Assembly: GCA_963727455.1 (NCBI GenBank)
Contig: CAVSGG010000008.1
Location: forward strand, 160,001-224,000
DNA: 64,000 bases
Source of the DNA: Candidatus Krumholzibacteriota bacterium
GTDB lineage: Bacteria > Krumholzibacteriota > Krumholzibacteriia > JAJRXK01
Direction of reading: 5' to 3'
The stretch's first letter is position 1. The number at the start of each line of letters is the position of its first letter. This document shows positions 44,490 to 63,313 of the stretch, in pieces. The translations under genes and the position numbers were made by a program. The notes beneath the pieces were generated by a model. The model had not been told where the DNA came from. It was given only the letters and a program-made list of their open reading frames with translations, and did not search any database.

Positions 44490-45719
44490 TCAGGCGGGCC
44501 TGGTCTCTTTCAAGCAGCGCAGAAGCTCGTCGATGTCCGCTTCGGTGTGGGCCGCGTTGATTTGCACGCGAATCGTCTCGTCCCCGCGCGGCACCACAGG
44601 AAAGGTGAGTCCCACCACGAGGATGCCCCTCGCAAAGAGCTGGCTCACCCAGCGTCGCGTCTTCTCGGTGTCACGCACCAAGAGCGGGACTACCGGATGG
44701 GGCCCCGGAATGGACTCCAACCCCAAGAGCGCCACCCCGCGCCGGAACTGAGCCACCCGCTCGTGCAGGTGCTTCAGGCGCTTTTGACCCTCGGGCGAGG
44801 CGGCCAGTTCGACCGCGGCCAGCGCGGCCGCGCAGTCGGCCACTCCGAGCGGGTTCGTGTAGATGTAGGTGTCGGCCTTCTGACGTACCGCTTCGATGAG
44901 CTGGGCGCTCCCCGCGATGAAACCGCCGTTCACCCCGAAGGCCTTGCCGAAGGTCCCCACCACCACGTCCGCCTTTGCCTGGGTGAATTCCTCGGTGCCG
45001 CGAGCCGTATCCCCGTAGGCTCCGATCCCGTGCGAATCGTCCACGATGATGAGGATTCCCTCCTCGAAGCGCCCCTCGTGCGCAGCCACGATCTCACGGA
45101 TCTTCGCCAAGGGCGCGAAGTCGCCGCGCATACTGAAGATTCCGTCGCAGATCACCAGGACGCGCTTCATCCCCGCAGGCACCGCCTCCAGGCACTTTCT
45201 GAGTTCGGCCATGTCGTTATGGGCATAGATGGCCCGCTGTTGCGAAGGCACTCCGGCGATGCGCATTCCGCGGATGATGCAGTTGTGGTTGAGAGCGTCG
45301 CCAATCCAGTAGCTCTGTTTCCCGGCCAGGGTGAGGGCCAGGCCCAGATTGCTGGTATAGGCGGAATTGAAGATCTTGGCGGCTGGCTTGCCCAGGTACC
45401 GGGCAATCGCAGTCTCGAGTTGGCGGTGGTGGCGGAAGGTGCCGTCGATGAAGCGCACCGCGCCCGGCCCGACACCGAATTCGTGGGTGGCGCGGTCAGC
45501 GGCCTCCACCAGCTTGGGGTGATCGGAAAGGGAGAGGTAGGAATTGGAGTTCATGCGCAGGAATTCCTGCTCGCTTTCCTGCAGCCTATAGCGCGGTCCC
45601 CGCTTTCCCTTGGCGGGGAGATACCCCACGATCACTCTCTCGGGCGCCTTGGCCCGACCCTCATCCTTCAGGCCCTGCAGCTCCTTGGCCAATGCCTCGT
45701 CGATCTTCTGCATGCTCAT
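44490..45719 (-). CDS. kbl: Alpha-oxoamine synthase family PLP enzyme (glycine C-acetyltransferase / BioF-like)
   Basis: SNSYL, GPGAVRFIDGT, DALNHNCII, DGIFSMRG, DDSHG, GTFGKAFG, RVQINA. Confidence 0.8.
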   Translation of the reverse strand: MSMQKIDEALAKELQGLKDEGRAKAPERVIVGYLPAKGKRGPRYRLQESEQEFLRMNSNSYLSLSDHPKLVEAADRATHEFGVGPGAVRFIDGTFRHHRQLETAIARYLGKPAAKIFNSAYTSNLGLALTLAGKQSYWIGDALNHNCIIRGMRIAGVPSQQRAIYAHNDMAELRKCLEAVPAGMKRVLVICDGIFSMRGDFAPLAKIREIVAAHEGRFEEGILIIVDDSHGIGAYGDTARGTEEFTQAKADVVVGTFGKAFGVNGGFIAGSAQLIEAVRQKADTYIYTNPLGVADCAAALAAVELAASPEGQKRLKHLHERVAQFRRGVALLGLESIPGPHPVVPLLVRDTEKTRRWVSQLFARGILVVGLTFPVVPRGDETIRVQINAAHTEADIDELLRCLKETRPA

Positions 45720-45969
45720 AACGGGTCCCTCCTCCAGCGTTCCGCGCCCTTCTCGCTCGGCGCGGGCAGTGTAGTGCAGGGCTCCTCGCGCTCGCAAGCA
45801 GACAGCGACCAGGGGGCGGGCACAAAAAAGTTGGGCTCGAGGCAAAAAAGTCAAGCGGAGGATGCTGCGCGACTAGGGTATTTGACCTATTATGAGGTCT
45901 ATCAACACGCTGTCGAGCCCTACGCCGGCTCGACCCCATCGATTGGTTCCAAGTCGCGGAGTTCGCGCC

Positions 45970-46110
45970 ATGAAGACGAGACACGACGCTGGCCAGAAGC
46001 GTCGCCCCTACAGTCCACCCGTAGTCAAGCGGCAGAGTAATCTCAAGTTGATCACGCTTTTCACCCAGATGGGTCCGGATTCGAAGCGGACGGCGAACGG
46101 TTCCCACTAG
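45970..46110 (+). CDS. Putative RiPP precursor with lasso-type leader (46 aa)
   Basis: MKTRHDAGQKRRPYSPPVVKRQSNLKLITLFTQMGPDSKRTANGSH; GGAG SD; lies in an otherwise empty gap; spacing matches YxxPxLxxxGxxxxxTx. Confidence 0.65.
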   Translation: MKTRHDAGQKRRPYSPPVVKRQSNLKLITLFTQMGPDSKRTANGSH

Positions 46111-46134
46111 GGCCGCTCACAAAGCGCCCGGCCC

Positions 46135-47028
46135 CTACAACTTTTGCTCGACTGGAACGTGCCGCTCTGCGTGATAAGAGGAGCGCACGAAGACGCCACT
46201 TTCGACATGCGCGAAGCCCAGGGTTTCCGCATGCGCACCGATTTGCTCGAATTCCTCCGGCGGAACCCAGCGTTCCACTGGCAAATGGCGCGCACTGGGT
46301 TGTAAATACTGCCCGATAGTCAAAATGTCGACCTCAGCTTCGCGCAAGCGTTCACAGACTTCGTAGATCTCGTCCAAGCTCTCTCCCAGCCCCAGCATCA
46401 AGCCACTCTTCGTCCGTAAAACCTTTTCCCCCTTGGCCTTGGCAGCGCGGGCCAGCAACTGGAGGCTGCGCGGAAAGTCCGAGCCGTGGCGTACCCGCGA
46501 GTAGAGCCGGGGCACCGTCTCCACGTTGTGGTTGAGGATCTCGGGCCGGGCGGCGAGGACGGTCTTCAAAGCCTCTTCGCTGCCCCCGAAATCGGGGATG
46601 AGAACTTCCACCGTACAGCCGGGGTTTTCGCGCCGGATGGCGGCGATGGTGGCCGCGAAGTGGGCCGCGCCCCCGTCCGGCAGATCGTCGCGATTGACGC
46701 TGGTGACCACGGCGTGGCCGAGACCCAGCTCCTGTACTGCTTGCGCCACATGCTCGGGCTCTGCGGGATCGAGCAGGGCGGTGGAGCCCTTCTTCACCGC
46801 GCAGAATCCGCAATGCCGCGTGCACACCTCCCCCATGAGCATGAAAGTGGCGGTCCGGGCCGACCAGCATTCGAAGAGGTTGGGGCACTGGGCTTCCTCG
46901 CAGACAGTGGTCAGATGCAGCGAGCGCATCATGGAGCTGACGCCCTTCACCGCCTCGGAATCGCGCAGACGCAGGCGCAGCCACGGCGGACGCTGCGCGA
47001 TGCGTTCCTTCAAGCTCTCCCTGGGCAT
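46135..47028 (-). CDS. lipA: Lipoyl synthase
   Basis: CEEAQCPNLFEC, CTRHCGFC, NHNVETV, GQYLQP, VRSSYHA. Confidence 0.97.
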   Translation of the reverse strand: MPRESLKERIAQRPPWLRLRLRDSEAVKGVSSMMRSLHLTTVCEEAQCPNLFECWSARTATFMLMGEVCTRHCGFCAVKKGSTALLDPAEPEHVAQAVQELGLGHAVVTSVNRDDLPDGGAAHFAATIAAIRRENPGCTVEVLIPDFGGSEEALKTVLAARPEILNHNVETVPRLYSRVRHGSDFPRSLQLLARAAKAKGEKVLRTKSGLMLGLGESLDEIYEVCERLREAEVDILTIGQYLQPSARHLPVERWVPPEEFEQIGAHAETLGFAHVESGVFVRSSYHAERHVPVEQKL

Positions 47029-47030
47029 GA

Positions 47031-47693
47031 TCAGCTCACCCCTTCCACCATCTCGCGTTCGAAGACCGCGCCGAACTCGGGAACGAGTGCACGGGTGACC
47101 CGCTCCAGGCTCAGCTCCGAAAGCCCGAGCTCCTCAAGGGAGCTGACTCGTTTGTCCTGAATCCCGCAGGGCACGATGGTTCCGAAAAAGCGCAGGTCAC
47201 AGTTCACGTTCAGCGCGAAACCGTGGCTGGTGACCCAATGGCTGAGACGCACTCCGATGGCGGCTACTTTGGCGTCAGCCACCCACACCCCGGTGTAGCT
47301 CGGATGCCGTCCCGCCTGGATTTGGAACTTAGCCAGCACTCGGATCAAAACCTCCTCGAGACGCCGTAGGTAGCGGTGCGCGTCCCGTTCCCCTTCCCGC
47401 AATTGCAGGATAGGATAGCCCACGAGCTGTCCGGGGCCGTGATAGGTCACGTCGCCTCCCCGCCCGGATTCGTGCACCGTGAGATGGAGCCGTTCGCGCG
47501 CCGCCGGGTCCACTAGAATGTGTTCCTCACTCGCACGGCTTCCTTTGGTGAGAACGTGCGGATGCTCGAGCAACAGGAGCTGATCGGGGATCTCTCCCTG
47601 CCGACGCCGGCGCACCAGTTCCTCTTGCAAGCGGACGGCTTCCTCGTACCCCATGCAGCCGAGTGAGCGATAGTGACACGGAGGAAGTGGCAT
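47031..47693 (-). CDS. lipB: Octanoyltransferase
   Basis: LLEHPHV, RGGDVTYHGPGQLVGYP, KVAAIG, HGFALN, IVPCGI. Confidence 0.97.
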   Translation of the reverse strand: MPLPPCHYRSLGCMGYEEAVRLQEELVRRRRQGEIPDQLLLLEHPHVLTKGSRASEEHILVDPAARERLHLTVHESGRGGDVTYHGPGQLVGYPILQLREGERDAHRYLRRLEEVLIRVLAKFQIQAGRHPSYTGVWVADAKVAAIGVRLSHWVTSHGFALNVNCDLRFFGTIVPCGIQDKRVSSLEELGLSELSLERVTRALVPEFGAVFEREMVEGVS

Positions 47694-47706
47694 TTCCGCC
47701 CTACCC

Positions 47707-49160
47707 TCAGAGTGCGGTCTCGTCGAAGTTCTCCAGGGTCCTCTTCACCGAGCTCAAGAACACCTCCGCGGTGGCGCCGTCGACCAGTCGATGATCGTAG
47801 CCCAGCGTCATGTACATCTTGGGCCGAATGGCGATGGCGTCGTCGACGACGCAGACCCTCTTCTCCACGCTTCCCATCCCCAAAATCGCGACGTTTGGCT
47901 GTGAGATCACCGGGAAGCCGATGAGTCCGCCGAAGGAGCCGGGATTGGTGATGGAGAAGGTTGAGCCCTGGATCTCACTCAAATCCAGCTTGCGATCCCT
48001 TGCTCGCTTGGCCAGGTCGTCGATGGCTCGCGCGATTCCGGTCATGGAGAGATCCTGCGCGCGGCGAATCACCGGCACGATGAGACCCTGTTCCAGGGCG
48101 ACGGCGATCCCGACGTTGATGTCACCATGGAGAATGGCCTCGTCCCCCACCAGCGATGCGTTGACCACGGGCGTCGCGCGGAGCGCGTCGACCACTGCCT
48201 TCACCATGAACACGGTGTAGCTGAGCTTGGCGCCGCCCGCCGCCTTCATGAACTCCTCGCGGTGAGCCTTGCGCAGCTGATCGATGCGGCTCATGTCCAC
48301 TTCGTACAGCGTGTGCACGTGCGGCGAAAGCGCCTTGGAGATGACCATGTGCTCGGCAATCTTCTTGCGCATCTGCGAGAGCGGTTCGACTGTGTCGTTC
48401 TCGCCCTTGCCGGAGAGATAGGCCTGGACGGTCTTGGCCGGCCATCCGCTGACTCCCAGCATGGCGGAGCCCTCTACCGCGGGGGGACCCCCGTTTCCTG
48501 CGGGGCGCCCTGCGCGGCAGACTGGGCGAGAACTACTGGCGGCTGCGGCTGCAGGCTTGGCACCGCCCTCCTCGATGTAGGCCAGGATATCCTTCTTGGT
48601 CACCCGGCCCTGGATTCCACTGCCTTCGATCTTGTGATGTCGATCTCGTGCTCGGCCGCGATCTTGCGGACCACCGGCGAACTCTTGGTCCGGATCCGCT
48701 CCTCCCGAGACGCCGTCCCCTTGTCGCCGGCCGCGCCGGAGACCTTGGACTCCTCGGACCGTGCCGGAACTGAGGGTGTGGCCTCAGCCGTACTGGATTC
48801 TTTGGTGGCCGCGGAGACCTCGGGCCCTTCACTTTTGGAGGCCTCGCTCTCTTGCGACTTCTCGTTCGCGGGCGTCGGGGAGGGTTCGGGCTCCTTGCTC
48901 TCGGACTTGGCGCCGGCGCCATCCTCTTCGCCGATTCGCGCGACGACGGTGTTGATTTCCACCGTTTCCCCTTCCCCAACCAGAATCTCCAGCAGAGTCC
49001 CCGCCTGGGGCGCGGGAATCTCCGCGTCCACCTTATCGGTGGAGATCTCGAATAGGGGCTCGTCGTGCTCGACCACATCGCCCACTTTCTTGAGCCACTT
49101 GGTGATGGTGCCCTCGGCGATGCTCTCGCCCATCTGAGGCATGATCACTTCGCTTGCCAT
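47707..49160 (-). CDS. 2-oxoacid dehydrogenase E2 (dihydrolipoamide acyltransferase), frameshifted in this assembly
   Basis: Lipoyl domain MPQMGESIAEG...EISTDKVDAEIP, binding domain SPVVRKIA, catalytic DHRLVDG; split near 48600-48640. Confidence 0.9.
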
Positions 49161-49224
49161 GGATCCTCCCGGCCAGCATTGGCAACTGGCGCTCGTAGAG
49201 ATTTCGAAAGGAAAGCTCGAACTT

Positions 49225-50205
49225 TCAGTATCGTACCAAAGTCCGGGCTTTCGCCACCACCTGAGCCGCTTGAGGCAGGAATGCCTCTTCCAGGGGGGGA
49301 CTGTAGGGCACCGCGCTATCCGGGGACGCAAGCCGCATCAAGGGTGCATCCAACCACTCGAAGGCTCTCTCGGAGATTCGCGCGGCGAGTTCACCTCCGA
49401 AGCCACCGTTCAGTGTCGCTTCGTGCAACAACAACACTCGACCGCTGCGCCGCGCCGCCGCGAGTACCGCCTCTTCATCCAGAGGAACGAGACTGCGCAG
49501 ATCCACAACTTGCGCCTCGATCCCGTCTTCTTCGGACAGCTGGCCCGCAGCCCGCAGTGCGGTGTGTACCATCGCTCCGTAGGTGATGATCGCCAGATCC
49601 CCGCCCTCTCGCAAAGTTGCAGCCTTCCCCAGCGGAGTAAGGATCTCCTCGTCCTCGGGAAGCTCCTCTTTGATCCGGCGGTAGAGGTACTTGTGCTCCA
49701 AAAAGAGTACTGGATCGTCGTCGCGGATCGCCGCTTTCAGAAGACCTTTCGCGTCGCGTGCGGTCGCCGGCTGCACGATTTTCAATCCCGGCGTGGAGCT
49801 AAAGAAGTTCTCCACGTTTTGGCTGTGGAATGGACCTCCGTGGACACCGCCCCCCGAAGGTCCCCGAATGACGATGGGCACCGAATAGCCCAGTCGGTAG
49901 CGCGCCTTCGCGGCCCAGTTGACGATCATGTTGAAGGCACAGGCGATGAAGTCGATGAACTGCATCTCGACCACCGGCCGCATGCCCTCCAGCCCCAGTC
50001 CGATGGCGCATCCCACGATTGCCGATTCGGAAATCGGAGTGTCCAGAATGCGCTTGGGTCCGAAATGTTCGAGCAGGCCCGAGGTTGCGCGAAATGCTCC
50101 GCCGTAGTGTCCGACGTCTTCTCCCATGAGCAGCACCGATTCGTCGCGCTCCATCTCCTCCCACAGCCCGTCATGAATGGCCTCGATGTAGCTCCGTTCC
50201 GCCAT
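49225..50205 (-). CDS. 2-oxoacid dehydrogenase E1 beta subunit
   Basis: MAERSYIEAI, GEDVG, DTPISE, EMQFIDF, GGPFHSQ; strong SD GGAGGAGG. Confidence 0.93.
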   Translation of the reverse strand: MAERSYIEAIHDGLWEEMERDESVLLMGEDVGHYGGAFRATSGLLEHFGPKRILDTPISESAIVGCAIGLGLEGMRPVVEMQFIDFIACAFNMIVNWAAKARYRLGYSVPIVIRGPSGGGVHGGPFHSQNVENFFSSTPGLKIVQPATARDAKGLLKAAIRDDDPVLFLEHKYLYRRIKEELPEDEEILTPLGKAATLREGGDLAIITYGAMVHTALRAAGQLSEEDGIEAQVVDLRSLVPLDEEAVLAAARRSGRVLLLHEATLNGGFGGELAARISERAFEWLDAPLMRLASPDSAVPYSPPLEEAFLPQAAQVVAKARTLVRY

Positions 50206-51256
50206 CACCCCTCCTCCCTTTGTCCGCGGCGAGGATCGTCGTCCTCCGCGTAGACTCCACCGAAGGCCAGCGAGGGATCGGGCATGGGCGAGTTCTGGGC
50301 ATACTCCGCGTCCTCCTCGAGTTCCTTGGCGATGGGTTCGCGCATTTCGTCCAGCTGCGAGCTGGGTGACCAGGCCTTCTCCCAAGAGGTAGTTCCGCAA
50401 GCGATCGATGGGATCGCGCGCCTCCCAGTACTTGCGAAGGTCCTGCGGCACGTAGCCGGCATCGTCGTGCTCGGCGTGTCCTCGACGGCGGAAGGTGAGC
50501 ATTTCCAACAAGATGGGGCCCTCTCCCTTGCGACATCGGCGCACGGCGCGCGCGGTCGAGTGATAGACTGCGATGACGTCGTTGCCGTCGACCCGCTCTC
50601 CCTTGATGCCATAGGCCTTGGCCCGGTCGGCGAAACGTGGATTGCCCGTTTGAGATGCGGTCGGAGTGCTGTACGCATAGCCGTTGTTCTCGCAGACGAG
50701 GATCAAGGGGAGCTTCCAGACCGCAGCCAGATTCAGGGCTTCGTGGAAATCTCCGGTGGAAGACCCACCGTCGCCGATGTAATTCATCGCCACGTTCTTC
50801 TTCCCGCGCAGCTTGGCGGCGAGAGCCGTTCCGGCGAGCACCGGAATCATCGCCCCCAGCATGGAAATGGGCGCCACGAGATCTCGTTCGATCGATCCGA
50901 AGTGGGTGTTGCCGTCACGACCGAAAGTAGGGACTTGTGGCGCGGGCCAGATACTGGGTGAAGATCTCCCGGGGACGAACGCCCTTGACCAGGAGCGATC
51001 CCAGGTTACGAATGAGCGCGCCCATTCGGTCGCCCTTTTCCAGGGCATAAGCGGTCCCCACCGCCACTGCTTCCTGTCCCAACGAACTGTAGAGACCGCC
51101 GACGACTTGGCCCTGACGGTAAAGCTTGCTCAAGCGGTCCTCGGTCATGCGCGTAAGGATCATGTACCGGTACAGTTCGAGAAGTTGTTTCTTGCCCAAA
51201 CGGGCAGTGGTATGGCGCAAGAGCGGAGGTACCGGATCAGCAGCATTGAACGCCAT
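50205..51256 (-). CDS. 2-oxoacid dehydrogenase E1 alpha subunit, two frameshifts (~50940, ~50360)
   Basis: GQEA, TPP motif GDGGSSTGDFHEALN...ENNGYAYS, RRRGHAEHD spread over three frames. Confidence 0.88.
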
Positions 51257-51259
51257 GGC

Positions 51260-52690
<1,431 letters not shown>

Positions 52691-52846
52691 CTACCACGCG
52701 GAGAGGGAAAAGTAGCACAAGTCCACGGTTTGCCCACCCGAAGCCCCAATTCCTTCGCCCAAACCCCCGCCGTGGGGCGCCGATTCATGGATTCAAATGT
52801 TTGGGTTTGATCGTCAAATGGTCTTACGGTGCGCGTGCCTCGGCGA

Positions 52847-52875
52847 TTGACAGCGCCAAGCGCCAACCGTAACCT
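52847..52875 (+). promoter_or_regulatory. Near-consensus sigma70 promoter of the PqqD gene
   Basis: TTGACA-17 nt-TAACCT. Confidence 0.65.
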
Positions 52876-52911
52876 CTTCTCCCGACCGGTCCTATGCCCC
52901 TTGGAGGAACC

Positions 52912-53205
52912 GTGGTCTTCAACCCCGACTTTCGCCCGAGCCGAAACGATCAGGTCCGTTGGCAGGCTGTCGACGAAGAGGGCATCCTCGTGAATCTCGA
53001 GACGGGCTTTTACTTCAGTTTGAATCCAGTGGCCCTGTTCATCTGGGACCTCTGCGATGGCGAAGCTTCCAACGCGCAGATTCTGGAGAAGATCGTGGAG
53101 AACTTCGACGTGGTCGAGGAGACGGCCCGTCAAGATTTCGAGGCATTTCTGGAGGCCCTGGAGAACGAGAACCTCCTCGTCGTGTCTCCTCCCAGGGCGA
53201 GCTAG
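52912..53205 (+). CDS. PqqD family protein (stand-alone RiPP recognition element)
   Basis: VDEEGILVNLETGFYFSLNPVALFIWDLCDG...FDVVEETARQDFEAFLEALENENLL; GGAGG SD before GTG. Confidence 0.9.
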   Translation: MVFNPDFRPSRNDQVRWQAVDEEGILVNLETGFYFSLNPVALFIWDLCDGEASNAQILEKIVENFDVVEETARQDFEAFLEALENENLLVVSPPRAS

Positions 53206-54308
53206 CCGCGAAAGTCCTCTCTTCGCGGATGCACAAACCCCCTCCCCCCAAGCGTGGATTGACGAAGCACGGGTCGCGCCAAGAGCGTGAGTACCTGTGG
53301 ACCCAGGATTTCGACCGCAGGAATACCTCCGTCGCATAGTTGAGATACCAGATCGGGACCACGCCACTTCTTCGGCGCTGCCATAGCGTACGCGCGACCA
53401 GACCGCGCCAAATCCGTGATCGAAGCGTCCCGGACCCGCCAGACTCTGGGTAGGCCCGCGGGGCCCTGGAGACCAAGGAGCAAACTGGCAGTCCGCAGCA
53501 CCCGGCTCAGCTCCTATTGCACTCCCATTTCCCTCGCGCGCGCGGAGAGGGTATGCCCATCGACCCTTCTCCGGCGCGCGAAGGCCAGCGTCTCCACACG
53601 GCCGGATCATGCCGGCGTAGTTCTCGTCATGGTCGATGCGGAGGCACGAATGGATGAGTGAATCGTAATCGTCCAGGCGCCTCATCTTCTCGTAATCGGG
53701 GCGAGAGAGGAAGGGAACGCGTCCACATCCCGTCCAGATCGAGATGAAAGGGATGCGGGGGACGAACCATGATCCCAGTGCAAGTTGAGCCTGAGTGCGG
53801 GACAGCTGGGTAAATAACGTGGCTCGGCGCGGTGATGGTGCAGGTAATATTCCTGCGGAAGCTTGCCGAGGCGCAGAAAGCCACAAGCATCGACCAAGCG
53901 TTCAGCCTCTTCCATCGCGGCGCGGCCGAGCAGGAGATCCATTTCGCCCGGACCGCGCAGCCAGCCCCGAGGCTCGTAGAGCAAGATGCGCAGGGCGGTC
54001 CCGTTCAGAGCGATCGCGGGAATGGAAGCTTCGGCGAATTTCTCAGCCAGCCGCCGTGTCGAGTCCCCGGCGACCAGATCGAAGGCAGCCGTGAGTTCGT
54101 GTGCCTCCTGCATCCTCAACTTGAGCAGTGGGGGAAGCTCGTCGTAGACGCCTTCGTCCTTTAGTACTCGGTAGAGCAAGGGGAGAATGCCGTTGTCGTT
54201 GGCCAGCTCCAAACCGGAGGCGTCGGGAGCCAGAAGGGGACAGCTCGTCTCGTCTTTGGCCATGAGACGAGCGATCCAGTGCAGCAGCTGATGAGGGGCG
54301 CGGTTCAC
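53202..54308 (-). CDS. Uncharacterised nucleotidyltransferase family protein (NTP_transf_5-like), frameshifted in the 3' half
   Basis: GILPLLY, IALNGTAL...Y...LRGPGEMDLLL, LNLHW (family pattern LKG..L...Y...R...DIDLL, ELHW); continuation in other frames to 53202. Confidence 0.7.
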
Positions 54309-54329
54309 GCTAGGCTCCGAGGAGGGGAT

Positions 54330-55286
54330 CTAGTGTCGATACACGTAGATGGAAAAGACGATGTACAGAGTCAAGAGCATCGCGGCTTCCGGCCGCTCCA
54401 CGCGGCCGTGGCGACGCATGATGGGAATGACCGCCAGCGTGAACAAGAGCATCACCATGAGCAAGAACCCAGTGGATCCGGATTCGTAAGGAATCTCAGC
54501 TCCTCCGAAGCACGCACTGATACCCAGCACGAAGAGCAAGTTGAGGATGTTCGAGCCAAGGATGTTGCCCACACCGATCTCATGCTGTCCTCTCAGTACC
54601 GCCACCACCGAAGCCGCAAGCTCGGGAAGGGAGGTGCCCTACGGCAACCATGGTGGCGCCGATCACACTCTCGTCGATTCCCAATTGCAAGGCGATGGCC
54701 CTGGCGCCCGTCACGAGCACTGTCGCACCGCCCACCAAGAAGGCCAGACCCAACACGACCATGAGCGAAGGAAGCAGCATACCTCCCTCGCCAGGATCGA
54801 TTACTCCCTCCAACGGTGTCTCCTTGATGGCATGTCCGCTTCTGACGTAGTACCAGGTGAAGAGAACGAGGCCCAGGAGGAGGATGATCCCGTCGTAGAC
54901 GGAATAACCCGCGCGGAAAGAGGGCCAGCGCGATTCCCAGGAGAGTCATCGCAACCAGGATCTTGACCTCCGCGCTCACCCGCGCCCAGGGCACATGGAT
55001 GGGCCGAAGCAGTCCCAGGATGCCCAAAATGAGTCCAATATTGGCGATATTGGATCCCAATACGTTTCCCAGGGCCAAACCGCCCGAACCCATTCGTGCC
55101 GCGGTGAGCGATGCGACCGCTTCGGGAGCACTGGTCCCGAAGGCCACGATCGTCATCCCCACCACCATGGGACGGACCCCCATGCGGAAGGCAATGCGAG
55201 ATCGAGCCCCGAACGAGGATCTCGGCACCGAACCAGGTACCGATCGCCCCACCCACCAGGTATGCGATAGCCAGGAAGCCATGCAC
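54330..55286 (-). CDS. Calcium/sodium antiporter (CaCA, YrbG-like), frameshifted
   Basis: Alpha repeats VAFGTSAPE...GNVLGSNIANI and IGATMVAVG...GNILGSNILN across frames. Confidence 0.88.
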
Positions 55287-55359
55287 TTGGATCCGTCTCC
55301 TTTGCGAATGGGGCCTCACGGAGCGAGCCCGCGCCGCCTTCGTTCGCGGCGGCGCTCCG

Positions 55360-55388
55360 TTGACCGCTGATCGGCTTCACCGTATCCT
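55360..55388 (+). promoter_or_regulatory. Putative sigma70 promoter of the sugar operon
   Basis: TTGACC-17 nt-TATCCT. Confidence 0.55.
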
Positions 55389-55459
55389 TGCTTCTCCTTC
55401 ATGCCAAGACTCAGCTTGCCATGTCGCCCTCAAGGACGAACTACAGGAGAACGCGGATA

Positions 55460-56434
55460 ATGCGCGCATTGATCACCGGGTACACGGGTTTCGTGGGTAG
55501 CCATCTCGCGGAGGCCCTTCTCGAGCGCGGCACCGAAGTGTACGGGCTCTATCGCTGGCGGAGCCGGCTCGAGAACGTCAAACACCTCCAGGGCCGCGTT
55601 CACCTGGTCGAGGGAGACATCGCCGACGCGGCGGCGATGCGCCACGCCGTGGCGCTCTCGCGTCCGGACGAAATCTACCATCTGGCGGCACAGTCTTTCG
55701 TTCCGACCTCGTGGACGAGCCCGGGCGCCACTCTGGATACCAACATCCAGGGTGAGCTCAATCTTTTCGAAGCAGTGCGGCAGCTCGAAGATCTCCCCAC
55801 GAATTCAAATCGCCGGTAGCAGCGAGGAGTACGGACTCGTTCGTGAGGATGAACTGCCGATCACCGAGGAGCAACCGCTCCGCCCCCTCTCCCCCTACGC
55901 GGTGAGCAAGGTGGCCCAAGATCTCTTGGCACATCAGTACTTTCGCTCGTACGGACTCGATGTGGTTCGCACGCGCGGATTCAATCACACCGGACCCCGC
56001 CGCGGTCAGGTCTTCGTGTGTTCCAATTTTGCCTGGCAGATCGTCCGAATCGAGCGCGGCAGGCGGAGCCCATCATCCGCGTGGGCAACCTCGAAGCCCG
56101 CAGGGATTTCACGGACGTAAGGGACATCGTGAGGGGCTATCAGCTCGCCTTGCAAAAGGGCGAGGCCGGCGAGGTCTACAATCTGTGTTCCGGCCGCGAT
56201 TGGAGCATTCAGCAGATCCTGGATCACCTGCTCTCGCGCAGCGAGGTCGAGGTGAAAGTCGAATTCGATCCTGCGCGCGCTCGACCCAGCGACGTGCCCG
56301 TCCTTCAGGGCAGTGCCGCGAAATTTCATGCTGTCTCCGGATGGAAACCCGAAATTCCCTTCGAGAGAACCCTCGATCAGATTCTGGACCACTGGCGGCA
56401 AGATCTTGCGTCCGCAAGAGGCTCCGACTCTTGA
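55460..56434 (+). CDS. GDP-mannose 4,6-dehydratase / Rmd-like extended SDR, two frameshifts
   Basis: ITGYTGFVGSHL, HLAAQSFV, GSSEEYG, SPYAVSK, FNHTGPRR, GNLEARRDFTDVRD. Confidence 0.85.
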
Positions 56435-57403
56435 AGCGCGCTTGGGTCACGGGGAGTCATGGCTTCGTTGCGCCATGGTTGATTCGTGAGCTCACACGGC
56501 GAAGAATCGAGGTCTTCGGGATCGACCGTCCCGGCCGTCCGCCCCGCACAAGAAGGCGAATACGAGGGACTCGAGCTGGACCTTCTCGACCCAGGCCGTA
56601 GATCGCGCCCTGCGGAAACATCGGCCCGACGCAATTTTCCATCTCGCCGCGCAGAGTAGCGCCGCGCGTTCCTTCCAGCATCCCGCAGAGACCCTGCACG
56701 TGAACGTGCAGACCACGGTGAGTTGCTCGAGGGAATCAGGCGTTCGGCAAGAGACGAAATGGTGTTGCTCTCGGTGGGTTCCTGCGAAGAGTACGGGCCG
56801 ATTCATGACGAGCAGGAGATTCCAGTGCGCGAGGATCACGCGCTGCGTCCAGCATCGCCCTACGCCGTGAGCAAAGTGGCGCAGACGCTGCTGTGCCTAC
56901 AGTACCACGAGGCCTATGCTCTGCCCGTGGTCTGCACGCGATCCTTCACTCACAGTGGCCCCGGCCAGAGCGACCGCTTCGTGTTCTCGAGCTTTGCCCG
57001 CCAGATCGCCGAGCAAGAGAAGGAAGGCCAAAGGGGACCAGGTGAGCTCCTCGTGGGAAACCTGGCGGCAGTGCGCGACTTGAGCGACGTGCGAGACGTT
57101 GCGCGCGCCTATGTGGAATTGGCCGAGAAGGGTAAACGCGGCGAGGTGTACAACGTGTGCTCCGGGAGGGGTATCGCGATCGAAGATGGGCTCTCGATTC
57201 TCCGCTCGCTCTCCAAGCGCGAAGTCGAGGTCAAGGTCGATCCGAAACGGCTCCGGCCGCTCGACGTTCCCGTCCTAGTGGGAGACGTGAGCAAGTTGCG
57301 CTCTCTCTTGGGTTGGTCCCCCTCCACGCCGGTCGAGCAAACTCTCGGTGATCTGCTCCAAGATTGGCGCATGCAGCTTCAGAGAGGAGAGCCCAATGGC
57401 TAG
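56431..57403 (+). CDS. Second Gmd/Rmd-like extended SDR, frameshift near 56550
   Basis: VTGSHGFV, HLAAQSS, GSCEEYG, SPYAVSK, GNLAAVRDLSDVRD. Confidence 0.83.
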
Positions 57404-58703
57404 GATTTGCATGGTGGGGACCGGCTACGTCGGGCTGGTGTCGGGCGCCTGCTTCGCGGACTTCGGTCACGAAGTTCACTGCGTGGACATCGACGAAAAG
57501 CGCATCGAGGCCCTGAAGCGTCACGAAATTCCCTTCTTCGAGCCGGGTCTCGATCAGCTCGTGCTCCGTAACCATCAGTCAGGCAGACTCCACTTCAGCA
57601 CGAAGCTCGAGGCGGGTATCCGCGCCTGTGAGGTCATCATGATCGCGGTCCAGACTCCGAGCGGAGAGCGCGGTGAAGCCGACTTGCGTCACGTTTTGAG
57701 CGTGGCACGGGAGGTGGGACGGCATCTCTTGCCGAAGGAACGGAAGCTGATCGTGACCAAGAGTACGGTTCCCGTGGGCACCTCACGCCGAGTCAAGGCG
57801 GAGATCGCGGAGAGCGCGCCTTCGGGCTCGGTATTCGAAGTCGCTTCGAATCCCGAGTTCCTGCGCGAAGGCAGCGCGATTGAGGATTTCATGCGACCGG
57901 ACCGCGTGGTTCTCGGGGTTGAGTCCGAGGAGGCGGAGCGAGTGCTGCGCGAACTCTATCGGCCGCTCTTTCTGCTCGAGACGCCGATGGTCGCTTGCGA
58001 CATCTCCACCAGCGAGCTGATCAAGTACGCGAGCAATGCGTTTCTGGCTTTGAAGATCTCCTACATCAACGAGCTTGCCGATCTCTGCGAGCGGACCGGG
58101 GCCAACATCTCTGCCGTGGCTAAAGCCATGGGACTGGATGGCCGCATCGGCCCCAAATTCCTCCATCCCGGGCTGGGATTCGGAGGATCCTGCCTTCCCA
58201 AGGACACCAGAGCGATCGTGAACATGGCAAAGGAACACGGAGAGGAATTATCGATCATCTCGGCCGCGATCCGGGTGAACATGATGCGCGTCCCCCGAGC
58301 GGTACAAAAGCTCGAGGGGCTTCTGGGAAAGATCGAAGGCAAGCGCGTGGCCCTTTTGGGACTTGCGTTCAAACCCAACACCGATGACGTGCGGGAGGCC
58401 CCCGCGATCGAGCTGGTAAAAGTCCTGCGCGAGAGAGGCGCTAGTGTGGTGGGATTCGATCCCCAGGCCGCCGAGAGCTTTCGCCGAGTCGTGAGGGACA
58501 TGGAGACGGCGCAGGACGCTTACGCCTGCGCTGAAGCTGCGGACGCCCTCGTTCTGGTCACCGAGTGGAATTCCTTCCGTACCCTCGATCTACTGCGTTT
58601 GAAGTCCTCAATGCGGACCGCCGTATTCCTGGATTGCCGCAACGTCTACGAGCGTGCGCGCATGGAGAGTTTGGGATTCGCCTACGATTGCTTTGGACGG
58701 TGA
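57396..58703 (+). CDS. ugd: UDP-glucose/GDP-mannose 6-dehydrogenase
   Basis: GTGYVGL, KSTVPVG, NPEFLREG, KYASNAFLA, GFGGSCLPKD, FKPNTDD. Confidence 0.94.
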   Translation: MARICMVGTGYVGLVSGACFADFGHEVHCVDIDEKRIEALKRHEIPFFEPGLDQLVLRNHQSGRLHFSTKLEAGIRACEVIMIAVQTPSGERGEADLRHVLSVAREVGRHLLPKERKLIVTKSTVPVGTSRRVKAEIAESAPSGSVFEVASNPEFLREGSAIEDFMRPDRVVLGVESEEAERVLRELYRPLFLLETPMVACDISTSELIKYASNAFLALKISYINELADLCERTGANISAVAKAMGLDGRIGPKFLHPGLGFGGSCLPKDTRAIVNMAKEHGEELSIISAAIRVNMMRVPRAVQKLEGLLGKIEGKRVALLGLAFKPNTDDVREAPAIELVKVLRERGASVVGFDPQAAESFRRVVRDMETAQDAYACAEAADALVLVTEWNSFRTLDLLRLKSSMRTAVFLDCRNVYERARMESLGFAYDCFGR

Positions 58704-58713
58704 TTCCGTGGAG

Positions 58714-59976
58714 ATGAAGGCACGGAGCGGCTTCGCTGCGGGCATGGCCTGGAACCTGGCCTCCGCCGCTCTTCCCCTCGTCGCGTCGTTCTTGGTTTCG
58801 GTGCTCCTCTTCCCCTACCTCGGACGAGAAGCGACCGGGCAATACATCCTGGTCATGTCGGCCGCCACCGTGCTCCTCATCGTGGCCAAGTTCGGGGTGC
58901 AGTCAGCGGCCAGCCGACTGATCACCGAGAACCAAGAAGACCCGGGAGTTTGGATCAGGGCCGGTATCGCGGTGCGGAGTCTTTTCACGCTCCCAACCGC
59001 TTTGCTCGCACTAGTGATCTCCCCTTTTCTGGCGCGAGCGATCGACGGGCCTTCGCTCATACCTCCCTTCTGGTTGGTGGCTCCCGTTCTCTTGGCGGCC
59101 TCGGCCTATGAGCTCGCTAGCGAATCCCTGGTCGGGCTGAGGCGCTTCTCCGCGATCTTCTTGGTTCGCCTGTTGTTTCTCGTGCTGCGGGTGGCCGCGG
59201 TGCTCGTCGTGCGCTCGTCTGCCCTGGGTGTCGTGGCCTTTCTCGTCGGACACGTACTGTCCCAGCTTCTGACCTCCGCGGCAGCCTGGGGCTGGATCCT
59301 GCGGCACTTTCCCTCCCGTGCAACTCAGGAGGAGAAAACGCGGGCGCGCAAACGTGTATTGGCGGTGAGCGCCCCTTTGGCGCTGTCTTCGGCGTCCTTT
59401 CTCATCTACGCCCAAACCGACAAGCTCATGGTGGGTTGGTTGCGTGACGCGGCGACCGCAGGAGATTTTGGGGTGGCGCGCACGGTGCTCGACGCGGCTC
59501 TGTTTCCGACCTTTGCGCTCGCCTGGACGCTCAGACCAGCCCTGGTGAGCGCGTTCCAGTCGCGAGACGTCCAGGAGACACGCGCGCGTCTCTTGGAGGG
59601 ATTGCGCTGGTCGGTGGCCTATGCACTGCTGGGTGGACTCCTGCTGTATTGGTTGGGACCGGCCGTTCTGGTGCGGCTGTTTACGCGCGACTTTTCCGCC
59701 TCCGGACCCCTCCTGCGCATCATGGTGCCCATATTGGTGCTGCGCGGGATTGGCACTGTCATTTTCCCCAGCCTGCTCGCCGCTGACCGTCAAACTACCT
59801 ATGCCCGACTCATGGTCCTCACGGCTCTCTTGAACGTGGCGGCCAACTTCCTTCTCATTCCCCCCTTGGGGGCAGAAGGCGCGATCCTGGCCACCATCGC
59901 CAGCTTGCTCCCTTTGACCGTGGGTGGATTGTGGATCGTGGCGAAGCTCTTCTTGAGAAGTGAGCAAAGCCGCTGA
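58714..59976 (+). CDS. Wzx-type polysaccharide flippase (MOP superfamily)
   Basis: About 12 TM segments, TDKLMVG, LNVAANFLLIPPLGAEGAILAT. Confidence 0.87.
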   Translation: MKARSGFAAGMAWNLASAALPLVASFLVSVLLFPYLGREATGQYILVMSAATVLLIVAKFGVQSAASRLITENQEDPGVWIRAGIAVRSLFTLPTALLALVISPFLARAIDGPSLIPPFWLVAPVLLAASAYELASESLVGLRRFSAIFLVRLLFLVLRVAAVLVVRSSALGVVAFLVGHVLSQLLTSAAAWGWILRHFPSRATQEEKTRARKRVLAVSAPLALSSASFLIYAQTDKLMVGWLRDAATAGDFGVARTVLDAALFPTFALAWTLRPALVSAFQSRDVQETRARLLEGLRWSVAYALLGGLLLYWLGPAVLVRLFTRDFSASGPLLRIMVPILVLRGIGTVIFPSLLAADRQTTYARLMVLTALLNVAANFLLIPPLGAEGAILATIASLLPLTVGGLWIVAKLFLRSEQSR

Positions 59977-60143
59977 GAGTTCACGCTCTTCGGCCGCGGA
60001 TGCCCGAAAGACTCCGAACTCCAAGGTGAGAGTCCGCAGCATCGATAATGCTTGACCTGTTCGCCGGGGAACGGTAAACGAAGGGCAGCGCCGCGATTCG
60101 CCGCACTTGCGCCTTGCCTCCTCGACTTCGGAGAAGCGCGAAC

Positions 60144-61238
60144 ATGTCCATCCTGTCGACAATTTTCGGCTTTAGTCTCGCGTGCCTGGTTTGTCTCGCT
60201 CTCACTCCTCTGGTCGCTCGCCTGGCAATCTCGGATGGACTTCGCAGCTCGACACCGCGCCGTTCCGGCTTGGCACCCGAGGTGCGGCCCCGGATCGGTG
60301 GGCTCGCGATCTATGGGGCGGTAGTACTCACCCTCCTCCTCTCGGCCTTCGCGTTCCCCGCGCTACAGAACCCCGCTGCAACGCGCTTCTTGAGCGGAGT
60401 CATCCTCTCCGGTGGACTGGTCGTCATCTTAGGACTGATCGACGATTTGCAGGAGAGCCTTCCCTGGAAGAAGTTGATCACTCAGGCGCTGGCCGTGCTG
60501 GTGCTGCAGTTCTACATGGACGTTCTGGGTTTCGCGATGGCCATGGGTCCCTGGTTGCACTTGGTGGTCTCACTGGTGCTTTTGCTCTGGATGCTGGGCC
60601 TGAGCAATGCCATGAACCTCATCGACGGTCTGGATGGACTGGCAGCTTCCATCGCGGCGCTGATCGGCTTGGGCATGTCCGTCGTGGCGCTCGCCCTTCA
60701 TCTGCCTTTGGCCGCATTGACCGCGGCCGTAATCTCAGGGGCGAGCTTCGCCTTTTTGCGCAAGAATGCACCGCCCGCGTCCATCATCATGGGCGATACT
60801 GGCTCGATGTTCACCGGATTCGCGCTTGCCGCGGTAGGAGTCGCGATCTTCGGAGCCCGTCCTTCCGCGCGGACTCTCCTGGGCCTACTTCTCATCTCCT
60901 GGGTTCCTGCATTGGACACCTTCTACGCGGTTCTGCGGCGCTGGGCGCGCAGGAGCAGCATCTTCCATGGCGATCTCGGACATCTGCACCACCGCCTGCT
61001 CGATGCCGGCTTTTCGCAGAAAAGCGCAGGGCTCGGTCTGAGCGCACTCACACTCTTGGGAGCAGTCACTGGAGCGGCGGTAATCCTGGGCCGCCACGCT
61101 CTTCTCTTTACAACTGCCCTCCTGCTTGCCACCTTCTTGCTGGTGTGGATCGTACTGCCGCACCTTTTCTCGCGCTTGGATGAGTCGAGCGCGAAGAGCC
61201 GGCGTGTCGACGCCGTTTCGCATGACAAAGCCGCCTGA
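60144..61238 (+). CDS. WecA/TagO-like polyprenyl-phosphate sugar-1-phosphate transferase (MraY family)
   Basis: PRIGGLAI, GLIDD, NAMNLIDGLDGL, MGDTGS, DLGHLHHRL. Confidence 0.92.
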   Translation: MSILSTIFGFSLACLVCLALTPLVARLAISDGLRSSTPRRSGLAPEVRPRIGGLAIYGAVVLTLLLSAFAFPALQNPAATRFLSGVILSGGLVVILGLIDDLQESLPWKKLITQALAVLVLQFYMDVLGFAMAMGPWLHLVVSLVLLLWMLGLSNAMNLIDGLDGLAASIAALIGLGMSVVALALHLPLAALTAAVISGASFAFLRKNAPPASIIMGDTGSMFTGFALAAVGVAIFGARPSARTLLGLLLISWVPALDTFYAVLRRWARRSSIFHGDLGHLHHRLLDAGFSQKSAGLGLSALTLLGAVTGAAVILGRHALLFTTALLLATFLLVWIVLPHLFSRLDESSAKSRRVDAVSHDKAA

Positions 61239-61241
61239 TCC

Positions 61242-62324
61242 ATGGTTCAGCCACTCACCATTGGGACGAGAGAGGATGGTCTCGCGAGAGCTCAGGCTGA
61301 GCTTTTCATGGAGCAGTTGCGGGAGTATGAACCCCCCTATCCAGTTCATCTGGAACTAGTCCGTCCTTCACAGGACCGGCCAATCGCGGTCCACGTCGAT
61401 CACATCGCGGAGAACCGCCGCAACATCCAGCTTCTTCATCACATTCTGCGCGAAGGTGATTGCGACGTCGTCATCCATCGTGGCTTCGATTTACGGGACA
61501 AGTTGCCCCCCGATCTCGCCATTGCCGCGATTCCAAAGCGGTGTTCACCCTACGATGCGCTTCTCTCACCTTCGGGGCTCACTCTCGACGAGCTGGAACC
61601 AGGAACTCCCGTAGGGGTAGTCCAACTCCGTGCGCGGGTACAGATGCTCCAGTACCGCCACGATCTCGACTGGACTCTCATGTCGGGAGACGTCGCCACC
61701 TGGCTGGCTGATCTACTGGATCAGAAAATCGAAGCGCTCGTCATGCCCAACGCGGCCATCGAGCAGTTGGGACTGCAGGAGCGTGTGAGTGAAATATTTC
61801 CCGCCGACCTGGTGATTCCCGCCCCGTGCTCGGGTATCCTCGTCTGCATTACCCGCCGCGATGACGAACTGGCACGGGGGCGCCTCTCTTGCATCCACCA
61901 CAAGGAGACCGCGCGTGAGTACGCGGCAGAACGCTCCATGATGGACGCACTGGACTGCGAGTGGGATTCTCCGGTGGCCGCACTCGCGCAGTGCAAGGGA
62001 CGCAGGCTTCTACTTCTGGGTATGGTCGCCGATACCGACGGCTACCGACTGATCAGGGAAGGAGTGGAAGGCAAGTCCTCCGAGTCGATCGAGGTGGGCG
62101 AGGCTGTCGCGGAGCTTTTATCACGCGGTCTCAGGCAGTCCGCGGAGGAATGGGACAGCGAAGAGTTCTCCGAGTCGCAAGTGGAGACGGATGAAGTCGC
62201 GGACGAACTAACTGCGCTCTTACTGGCGACCAACTTGAACGACCTCGAGGACGACTACCCCGAGAGCGACGAAGAGAAAGAGAAAGATCCAGACGATTTT
62301 GAAGAGGAGGAGTTTCTCGAATGA
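61242..62324 (+). CDS. Porphobilinogen deaminase (HemC)-like protein, catalytically degenerate, acidic C-terminal tail
   Basis: HemC scaffold IGTR..LARAQA, LAIAAIPKR..PYDAL, LDELEPG..VG, IPAPCSG, AERSMM, SPVAALA; key motifs altered. Confidence 0.8.
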   Translation: MVQPLTIGTREDGLARAQAELFMEQLREYEPPYPVHLELVRPSQDRPIAVHVDHIAENRRNIQLLHHILREGDCDVVIHRGFDLRDKLPPDLAIAAIPKRCSPYDALLSPSGLTLDELEPGTPVGVVQLRARVQMLQYRHDLDWTLMSGDVATWLADLLDQKIEALVMPNAAIEQLGLQERVSEIFPADLVIPAPCSGILVCITRRDDELARGRLSCIHHKETAREYAAERSMMDALDCEWDSPVAALAQCKGRRLLLLGMVADTDGYRLIREGVEGKSSESIEVGEAVAELLSRGLRQSAEEWDSEEFSESQVETDEVADELTALLLATNLNDLEDDYPESDEEKEKDPDDFEEEEFLE

Positions 62325-63313
62325 CTAAGCCCCTGCCCACCCTCTTGCTAACCGCCCTTCCAGCCTCGGGCAAGTCCGAGGTCCGGCGCTACCTCGAACA
62401 TCTCAGTCCCGAGGAGGTCACGCGCGATTTCCATCTGGGCGAGACGGTCCAGCTGGATGACTACCCCTATGTCCATGCCATGCGTCGCATCTCGGAAGAG
62501 TTGGTATCGCGGGGACGCGACGGGATCTTCTTCACCTCACAGCTCGAGCCCTTCAAGGAACCGCTGGACTGGGGAACTCTGATGCACCTGCTCAACGAGG
62601 ACTATCGCGACCTCCACGAGCCGCCGAAGATCGAAGTCGATTCCGCGGCGAACTGGCTCTTCGACCGTCTCGATCGCTGTCGCTCCGCCGTGGGCGCACC
62701 GGCCGAACTGGGGGCTCTGGAGCCCGGCTTGCGCAAAGAGCTGAGCGAGGCACTCGAAGACGAAGCACGCTCCCTTCTGAACGACAAGCTGGCCGGTATC
62801 CCCGAGGATCTTAGGGGCAAGACGATCGTCATCGAGTTTGCCCGTGGAGGCGCCGATGGCTCCTCGATGCCTCTTCCCGCTCCCTTCGGCTATGCTTTTG
62901 GATTCGCCCAGTTAAGCGACGAAATTCTGAAGGACGCCAGCGTCCTCTACATTTGGGTTTCGCCCGAGGAGAGCAGACGCAAGAACGAGGAGCGCGCCAA
63001 GCCGGGTCGCAGCGGTGATGCGTCGATTCTCAACCACGGCGTGCCCATCAAAGTCATGCTAGGCGATTACGGCTGTGACGACATCGAGTGGTTGCTTGAG
63101 CAGAGCGACCGCCGCGACACCGTCCGCATCGAGACCCGCGGCAGGGTCTTCCATCTTCCTCTGGCCCGTTTCGACAACCGCGAGGACCTTACAACTTTCG
63201 TCCGAAAGGACCCCCAGCAGTGGACGAAGGAGGAAGTGAGTGCGCTTCACTCGGGTCTGAAGGACGCATTCGAACATCTTCTACGGGCGCGCCGGGAGTC
63301 GCCCGAGGCCTAG
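62321..63313 (+). CDS. Hypothetical P-loop (nucleoside monophosphate kinase-like) protein
   Basis: N-terminal LLLTALPASGKSE Walker A-like motif; IVIEFARG; LYIWVSPEESRRKN; ATGA overlap with the HemC-like gene. Confidence 0.7.
   Translation: MTKPLPTLLLTALPASGKSEVRRYLEHLSPEEVTRDFHLGETVQLDDYPYVHAMRRISEELVSRGRDGIFFTSQLEPFKEPLDWGTLMHLLNEDYRDLHEPPKIEVDSAANWLFDRLDRCRSAVGAPAELGALEPGLRKELSEALEDEARSLLNDKLAGIPEDLRGKTIVIEFARGGADGSSMPLPAPFGYAFGFAQLSDEILKDASVLYIWVSPEESRRKNEERAKPGRSGDASILNHGVPIKVMLGDYGCDDIEWLLEQSDRRDTVRIETRGRVFHLPLARFDNREDLTTFVRKDPQQWTKEEVSALHSGLKDAFEHLLRARRESPEA

Follow-up and report, generated by a model that had tools for sequence, protein, structure and literature searches.

Do a small open reading frame (ORF), a stand-alone PqqD-family protein and a nucleotidyltransferase gene, located in one region of a Krumholzibacteriota genome, belong to a single peptide modification pathway, and if so, of which kind? 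The region is part of a stretch of 64,000 nucleotides (hereafter the window; contig C8:160001–224000) from the metagenome-assembled genome (MAG) of a wetland bacterium, which comprised 3.46 Mb in 18 contigs with a GC content of ~61% and was 88.85% complete with 6.68% contamination. The original prediction had left two options, a lasso peptide pathway with its cyclase elsewhere in the genome or a cyclase-free system making a nucleotidylated or glycosylated peptide. The window's own genome, designated G000, was compared with the genomes of relatives, numbered from G001 upward, in a set of 208 genomes of the phylum Candidatus Krumholzibacteriota, which represented one class and in which G000–G004 formed genus g1. 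The three genes are probably the remaining members of a cyclase-free, lasso-derived cassette, which is native to the phylum and works like the Linear Polyphosphorylated Peptide (LPP) systems of Bacillota.

The precursor-peptide gene (45970–46110, + strand) encoded 46 residues followed by a stop codon, and a GGAG sequence was located 8 nt upstream of the ATG. The leader contained Tyr14-x-x-Pro17, Leu25, Lys26, Thr29, and Leu30; by analogy with LppA, the precursor of the LPP systems, cleavage is predicted after Thr29, with Thr32 as the acceptor residue. A profile made from five copies of the peptide matched 16 of the 208 genomes, with matches in seven of nine genomes of family f1, four of 43 of f4, and four of eight of f7. 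Because these copies were found beside PqqD and kinase genes in unrelated contexts, the ORF is more than a chance frame. It is a real gene, and it belongs with PqqD. When 23 copies were aligned, residues Tyr14, Pro17, and Leu25 were invariant, Lys26 and Leu30 were nearly so, and Thr29 was retained in 20 copies. Position 32 was Ser or Thr in all 20 non-degenerate copies, and was Thr in the peptides of family f1. The C-termini were freely variable, and the precursors were 36–57 residues in length. An ATG start was present in 21 of the 23 copies, mostly after a purine-rich stretch. A scan for a + strand sigma-70 promoter and a terminator at the small ORF, which is uninformative for this phylum, found neither.

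The reading frame of the peptide was intact in G000, in G001 and in independent short-read contigs, one of which, from run X1, spanned it without gaps (45942–47924). In runs X2 and X3, the contigs had G in place of A at position 46079, which replaced Asp37 by Gly in the peptide core of related populations. In G001, which belongs to the same genus and shared the same synteny with all genes intact, the peptide was 78% identical, and the changes fell within the leader's N-terminal end and the core, with one inside the conserved leader stretch.

The stand-alone RiPP recognition element (RRE; RiPPs are peptides made by the ribosome and modified after translation), a B1-type protein of the PqqD family (52894–53205, + strand), was composed of 103 residues and matched PF05402 with an E-value of 2.8e-19. 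It was the sole PqqD match in G000 and was 90% identical to its counterpart in G001. It scored under the cut-offs of all NCBIfam PqqD subfamilies, with the ScmD and lasso B1 models as the best matches. The model for PqqD proper of pyrroloquinoline quinone biosynthesis (TIGR03859) gave 32.5 bits, below its cut-off of 46; no search was made for the remaining pqq genes. When genome contigs were scanned with this protein, three loci were found. The third gene, an LppN/PsmN-like nucleotidyltransferase of the NTP_transf_5 family (53202–54308, − strand), was the only PF14907 match in G000 (E 5.6e-17 for its N-terminal piece). As predicted originally, it converged on PqqD with overlapping stops, and both stop codons shared the palindrome CTAG (53202–53205). 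The predicted placement of the precursor and PqqD genes, both on the + strand, on either side of the minus-strand lipA-lipB-E2-E1-lpdA block also agreed with the coordinates, and the distance between the two genes was 7 kb.

The partners of these genes were found in the relatives, in which the full cassette contained a precursor, an RRE, a B2 cysteine peptidase, an HprK-like kinase, an ABC-2 exporter and a nucleotidyltransferase. In G090 and G050, the order was B2, NTP_transf_5, ATP-binding cassette (ABC) ATPase, ABC-2 permease, peptide, PqqD, and kinase. The B2 proteins of these two genomes were 167–168 residues long, matched PF13471, and passed the NF033537 cut-off of 33 bits with 39.6 and 42.7 bits. 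The cassette was bordered by BatD/TPR, C1 peptidase, HIT, thioredoxin and V-ATPase genes in G090, and by radical SAM and RNase G genes in G050. In G002 and G004, which belong to the window's genus, PqqD was followed by B2, kinase, ABC ATPase, and ABC-2 permease, and then by the convergent transferase. PqqD, B2 and kinase were also present in G005, and the PqqD orthologues of G002, G004 and G005 each preceded B2 and kinase. In the kinases of the relatives, the Walker A motif and a DD pair were conserved.

The kinase profile matched 12 of the 208 genomes at E ≤ 1e-10, and 11 of them at E ≤ 1e-100. All 11 strong-kinase genomes contained a PqqD match directly upstream of the kinase, a peptide match, and PF14907; a short PF13471 protein was present in at least 10 (G075 was not among the matches listed), and the peptide was located within 5 kb of the PqqD/kinase pair in eight, although the cassette-bearing genomes are kin and these counts are not independent. 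The co-occurrence that the original prediction had proposed as a check on the peptide, PqqD and nucleotidyltransferase was therefore found in 11 of 11 kinase genomes, and a functional link between the three is supported. The peptide gene was located immediately upstream of the PqqD and HprK-like kinase genes in G090, G091, G075, G050, and G057, and right behind the kinase gene in G008 and G009. In these seven genomes, the peptide was thus beside PqqD with no lip/dehydrogenase block at the cassette, as a second proposed check had asked. In G005, two peptide copies followed the cassette, on its side of the lip/dehydrogenase block. In G000, G001, G002, and G004 (four of the five g1 genomes), the peptide was located upstream of kbl, and the lip/dehydrogenase block separated it from PqqD. 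G003 was without an a-type peptide.

A related gene arrangement was observed in family f2. Many f2 genomes contained PqqD with a P-loop protein of 284–388 residues (L082 6620–9699, L083 6246–9281, L084 5855–8749, and L085 5960–8848), which aligned with the P-loop region of the kinase with an hhalign probability of 76%. NTP_transf_5 was divergently transcribed at these loci, and a protein of 166–199 residues belonging to no family was present in two of the four. No peptide of the window's family was found at the f2 loci. Large secreted proteins with C-terminal sorting domains of the type IX secretion system (T9SS), containing PKD, BNR/sortilin or FG-GAP domains, were located within or beside several PqqD/kinase cassettes (L025 11730–15002, L056 9903–12194, L068 3308–9779 and 11453–18133, and L082 3865–6177), and a T9SS-tailed protein was located beside PqqD in two of the four f2 loci. 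As such proteins abound in the phylum, this proximity may be due to chance, or it may represent a functional link.

In G002 and G004, the defining partners known from the relatives, B2, kinase and the two genes of the ABC-2 exporter, occupied the ~3.3 kb that separate PqqD from the transferase. These four genes were missing at the locus of G000 and G001, where PqqD and the transferase abutted. A whole-genome search of G000 found no HprK-like kinase of the cassette type and no PF13471 match, and neither was found anywhere in G001 (96% complete). No leader peptidase was found at the G000 locus. The exporter genes were absent at the G000 and G001 loci; a genome-wide search for ABC genes was not made. 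G003 was without PqqD, transferase and a-type peptide, and retained only a degenerate peptide copy. Because PqqD and kinase were adjacent, with or without B2 between them, in all 11 kinase-bearing genomes from three families, the state of G000 and G001 is most simply explained by a deletion. The window locus is a reduced form of the cassette.

A second, b-type peptide copy of 40 residues was located outside the window (G000:C18:11594–11686, − strand; L050:1492–1611). When the peptide alone was used to search its own genome, weak extra matches were obtained, one of which was this degenerate copy by profile search. The b-type locus was syntenic in G001, G003, and G004, and the peptide was intact in G002 and G004. 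Its T29-region motif was lost in G000, G001, and G003, which are exactly the three kinase-less genomes.

The peptide, PqqD and transferase show purifying selection. When 13 genes were compared between G000 and G001 by the Nei–Gojobori method, the ratio of nonsynonymous to synonymous substitution rates (dN/dS) was 0.048 for PqqD, the lowest of all, 0.21 for the peptide (46 codons), 0.19 for the transferase (179 in-frame codons), and 0.056–0.134 for ten neighbouring genes; these ratios are rough because dS was high for most genes (0.5–1.5), and the peptide is short. On these sequence comparisons, the precursor and the RRE would constitute a leader-binding pair that appears to be still functional.

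Among the systems described so far, the linear LPP family, and not a lasso peptide, comes closest. In a literature search, the LPP name was found only in Popov et al. (2026, Nat Commun 17:6633, PMC13381572). The LPP clusters of Bacillota have the composition lppA-K-B-S-D-N; the leader motif is YxxPxVLxHQxIxFETxxS, the leader is cut after Thr(−1), and Ser3 of the core is polyphosphorylated (PMC13381572). The relatives' cassettes shared with LPP clusters a separate RRE, a kinase that is HprK-like, an NTP transferase as yet uncharacterised, an exporter, the lack of a macrolactam cyclase, a precursor whose N-terminal leader is conserved and whose C-terminus varies, and often a position adjoining polysaccharide genes. 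Both sets of precursors appeared to share YxxPxV, and in both the distance was 15 residues from the Tyr to the last Thr of the leader and 18 residues from the Tyr to the hydroxyl-bearing third residue of the core. When compared with the published motif only, Tyr, Pro, Val/Ile, the hydrophobic residue at +11, Thr at +15 and Ser/Thr at +18 matched, but the Phe-Glu pair was not kept. The window itself contained the discrete RRE and the PF14907 transferase, the latter with a broken frame in the assembly, and no macrolactam cyclase.

However, the two systems differed in several respects. The leader peptidase of the cassettes was a B2 transglutaminase-like cysteine peptidase instead of the SipW-like signal peptidase of LPP clusters, and the exporter was a two-gene ABC-2 type instead of MsbA-like. 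No SipW-like signal peptidase was present in Pfam scans of the G090 and G050 cassettes; no genome-wide signal-peptidase search was made. The family f1 peptides have Thr instead of Ser at core position 3, and the window is without kinase, peptidase and exporter. LPPs were stated to be restricted to Bacillota, whereas the cassettes belong to Krumholzibacteriota. In the literature on Krumholzibacteriota and RiPPs, no mention of the cassette was found among the matches listed, judged by title and the start of the abstract.

Phosphorylated lasso peptides were the second point of comparison. The statement of the original prediction on paeninodin/pseudomycoidin-type clusters agreed with PMC8498205, according to which an HPr-kinase homologue phosphorylates the C-terminal Ser of the precursor, the nucleotidyltransferase gene is located between B2 and the transporter, and the pseudomycoidin nucleotidyltransferase decorates the phosphate with one or two hexoses. 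The relatives' cassettes shared with these clusters (A, K, C, B1, B2, N, D) the split B1/B2 pair, the HprK-like kinase, the transferase gene between B2 and the transporter, which was the order in G090 and G050, and, putatively, leader-dependent phosphorylation before processing. In contrast, no cyclase was found in the genomes checked, hence no lariat would form; the predicted acceptor was near the cleavage site instead of at the C-terminus; and the leader contained Tyr where Trp is typical of lasso leaders from Bacillota. The HprK-related kinase A and B families and the SynChlorMet proteins (TIGR04352, TIGR04355, TIGR04249 ScmC, and TIGR04248 ScmD) likewise pair a P-loop kinase with a PqqD-family protein, and within NCBIfam both the relatives' kinases and the window PqqD matched them best. 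However, the scores were far under the curated cut-offs, with 33–56 bits against 200 for the kinases with HprK-related kinase A and 49.8 bits against 100 for PqqD, and no radical SAM/SPASM protein was present at the locus.

In the relatives with the full cassette, the stand-alone RRE would bind the YxxP motif of the leader, and the HprK-like kinase would then phosphorylate the Ser or Thr located three residues past the final Thr of the leader. The nucleotidyltransferase would decorate the phosphate, the B2 cysteine peptidase would take off the leader, and the ABC-2 pump would export the linear product. In the lineage of G000 and G001, one deletion would have taken out B2, kinase and pump, leaving PqqD and the transferase stop to stop. 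A phosphorylated product is not expected in the window organism.

The condition of the assembly bears on how the transferase is read. The gene content and order given in the original prediction were borne out by ORF and domain scans, but E2, E1 alpha, lpdA, the transferase, the antiporter and both GDP-mannose-dehydratase-like (Gmd) genes, whose identities stood, were found to be frame-broken here. Approximately 17 frame changes were distributed over 47700–57000; the flanking genes were clean, and the frames of ten genes outside 47.7–57 kb and of E1 beta inside it were unbroken. On the minus strand, the small ORF was adjoined by fba and a kbl-like aminotransferase gene, and the block was composed of lipA (46135–47028), lipB (47031–47693), E2 (47707–49331), E1 alpha/beta (49225–51256), and lpdA (51160–52718). 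Nucleotide identity between G000 and G001 was ~78–80%, too noisy for placing indels, and protein-guided mapping and short-read contigs were used instead. Contigs from four public wetland and salt-marsh runs were aligned onto 45500–57500 and differed from the window by indels of 1–4 bases at no fewer than 12 places, those listed lying within 48481–56723. They were carried by contigs of 1–4 runs and included 48631 in E2, 50358 in E1 alpha, 51483 and 52415 in lpdA, 55788 and 56060 in the first Gmd-like gene, and 56548, 56591, and 56723 in the second. Because these indels were located at the places of the frame changes, the breaks are consensus errors, or are missing from near-identical populations. 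The frameshifts of 47.7–57 kb are mostly indel errors of a poorly polished assembly stretch. Contigs of runs X1–X3 gave no cover over ~52718–53920, which includes the PqqD gene, and very little over the remaining part of the transferase.

Several points weigh against the reading of the three genes as members of an LPP-like cassette. We infer every biochemical step from gene identities, synteny, co-occurrence, cyclase absence and the selection measures, and this includes the binding of the peptide by PqqD; homology with LPPs is suggested by motif spacing and gene content. In LppA, a Ser3-to-Thr change abolished phosphorylation (PMC13381572), and Thr is the residue found at this position in family f1. 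An intact lone PqqD gene adjoined lpdA in G006 (L027 9919–10218) and G007 (L026 9846–10187), with no peptide, kinase or B2 match. Because it was kept in this state, the RRE may serve something besides this peptide. A kinase elsewhere in the genome is conceivable at the 88.85% completeness of G000. The transferase as assembled consisted of approximately five frame pieces with one in-frame stop, compared with an intact frame of 407 residues in G001, and it may be a true pseudogene, as its breaks lie where the short-read contigs gave no cover. At two conserved positions, presumably the catalytic motif of Pol-beta-type nucleotidyltransferases, all seven other copies contained K-G and D-x-D, whereas the window copy contained N-G and E-x-D and the G001 copy N-G and G-x-D. 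These changes speak against unchanged transferase activity and make a nucleotidylated or glycosylated product less likely here. The transferase was also the most diverged of the compared genes, with 63% amino acid identity between G000 and G001 against 78–93% for the others. Judged from its sequence, it appears to be either altered in function or fading.

A functional minimal system, which corresponds to the second option of the original prediction, is the foremost alternative and is unlikely; in it, RRE and nucleotidyltransferase alone would act on a linear peptide that has not first been phosphorylated. Such a system would carry out direct O-nucleotidylylation or phosphoglycosylation of Thr32, possibly with sugar nucleotides supplied by the neighbouring genes. 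It would agree with the purifying selection on all three genes since the split of G000 and G001, which itself came after the shared deletion, and with the retention of Thr29 and Thr32 in the a-type peptide of both these kinase-less genomes. PqqD and NTP_transf_5 are also neighbours in many f2 genomes lacking this kinase subfamily, but a distant P-loop protein is present between them at those loci. The LPP and paeninodin clusters of Bacilli are often located in capsule loci and the pseudomycoidin transferase adds hexoses; however, the characterised transferase acts on a phosphate installed by a kinase, and LppN was inactive in a heterologous host (PMC13381572). The altered columns were found in exactly the two kinase-less genomes that retain the transferase, this enzyme was the fastest evolving of the set, and no leader peptidase or exporter was found. 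If true, this minimal system would represent RiPP chemistry so far undescribed.

Somewhat less probable is a decaying relic, in which the three genes have had no function since the loss of kinase, B2 and exporter and are merely not yet erased. The absence of the partner genes points in this direction, as does the graded loss within g1, from the full cassette of G002 and G004 through the three genes of G000 and G001 to the degenerate peptide copy of G003. The b-type peptide lost its T29-region motif in G000, G001, and G003 and not in G002 and G004, and the transferase was broken in the assembly and altered at conserved columns. However, the PqqD gene had the lowest dN/dS of the 13 genes, the peptide ORF was intact in both genomes and in the independent contigs, and the G000/G001 differences of the peptide were, with one exception, outside the conserved leader stretch. 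In addition, the frame changes checked in the neighbouring genes were assembly errors.

A lasso peptide pathway with cyclase and B2 peptidase elsewhere in the genome, the first option of the original prediction, found no support in the genome-wide searches and is very improbable, and the system is cyclase-free. A lasso-type RRE (B1) and a YxxP leader were both present, the PqqD was best matched by the ScmD and lasso B1 models, and the MAG is incomplete; the leader motif is defined as [Y/W]xxPx[L/V/I/A/F/Y] (PMC13381572). No cyclase, B2 or SPASM enzyme had been noted in the window, and the search of the whole MAG was in accord: six PF00733 matches were all on contigs other than the window's, the single SPASM match was on contig C5, and PF13471 gave none. 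Four full-length Asn-synthase homologues passed TIGR01536 as ordinary glutamine-dependent enzymes, and the best score against the lasso cyclase model NF033535 was 242.6 bits, far below the cut-off of 525. No cyclase passed the cut-off in any of the five cassette-bearing genomes checked, and their best matches were far from the cassettes. The cyclase-free part of the other option was thus upheld. Lasso cores begin with a small residue, carry an acidic one at position 7–9, and have a tail long enough for threading. When the window core is numbered from Phe31, its position 7 is Asp, but the A-to-G change at 46079 in the X2 and X3 contigs converts this residue to Gly. The peptide cores of the family had no conserved acidic position, and several relatives had only 7–10 residues after the Thr, without an acidic residue at 7–9, so these cores are too short for a lariat.

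On contig C5, outside the window, two amidotransferase-like Asn synthases of the XrtA/PEP-CTERM type and the sole SPASM protein were located within ~32 kb (G000:C5:525578–557170). This region is probably an exopolysaccharide locus unrelated to PqqD.

That the small ORF is no gene, being an accidental reading frame of GC-rich spacer DNA or a conserved regulatory stretch upstream of kbl, has almost nothing left to recommend it: spurious frames are many in a 61% GC genome, a sigma-70-like promoter for kbl is located on the other strand (45916–45889), and the peptide had no family match in Pfam or NCBIfam, but homologues with the same motif were found beside PqqD and kinase genes in other contexts and families, including genomes of 43–45% GC, the starts were preceded by Shine–Dalgarno-like sequences, the dN/dS of 0.21 indicated coding constraint, and no Rfam family was matched within 45000–55000.

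The genes located beyond the transferase raise the question of a link to glycan synthesis. The transferase was followed by a CaCA antiporter gene on the − strand, two GDP-mannose-dehydratase-like genes, ugd, a Wzx-type flippase, a WecA-type GT4, a HemC homologue (61242–62324, + strand), and a P-loop protein (62321–63313). The original HemC-like call stood as to homology (176.7 bits against a cut-off of 164, with an acidic C-terminal tail), but the protein was a second, divergent paralogue, weaker than the hemC on contig C11 (296 bits). The P-loop protein matched no Pfam or NCBIfam family, and a sequence search of the PDB gave no match at E ≤ 1. The HemC paralogue and the P-loop protein were kept after WecA in G001, G006, and G007. 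The order lpdA, PqqD, antiporter, Gmd, Gmd, ugd, Wzx, WecA, HemC-like and P-loop was found in all seven family f1 genomes examined at the locus, and the order of the glycan genes persisted in G006 and G007, where peptide, kinase and local transferase are missing. The cassettes of G008, G009, G050, G075, and G090 had no glycan-gene neighbours; the glycan link is therefore one of synteny within a single family, in line with the original statement that it was proximity only. A functional link is possible, given the parallel with LPP clusters embedded in capsule loci, but unsupported.

The locus thus appears, from its sequence, to represent in reduced form a cyclase-free phosphopeptide cassette with B2 processing. 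As a lasso-type B2 peptidase is used, the cassettes look like intermediates between phosphorylated lasso peptides and LPPs. If this reading is true, the linear phosphopeptide family would have, in Krumholzibacteriota, a B2-processed branch connecting the two. Popov et al. give the final product and structure of LPPs and the role of LppN as unknown (PMC13381572), and the cassettes provide a second, independent set of enzymes with short precursors for working out the role of the transferase. The kinase subfamily is large in metagenomes: when 1.84 billion representatives were searched with its profile, 718 matched at E ≤ 1e-30. Genus g1 represents a natural 'knock-out series' of full cassette, three-gene remnant and nothing, which can be used for asking what role an RRE and its peptide have without their enzymes.

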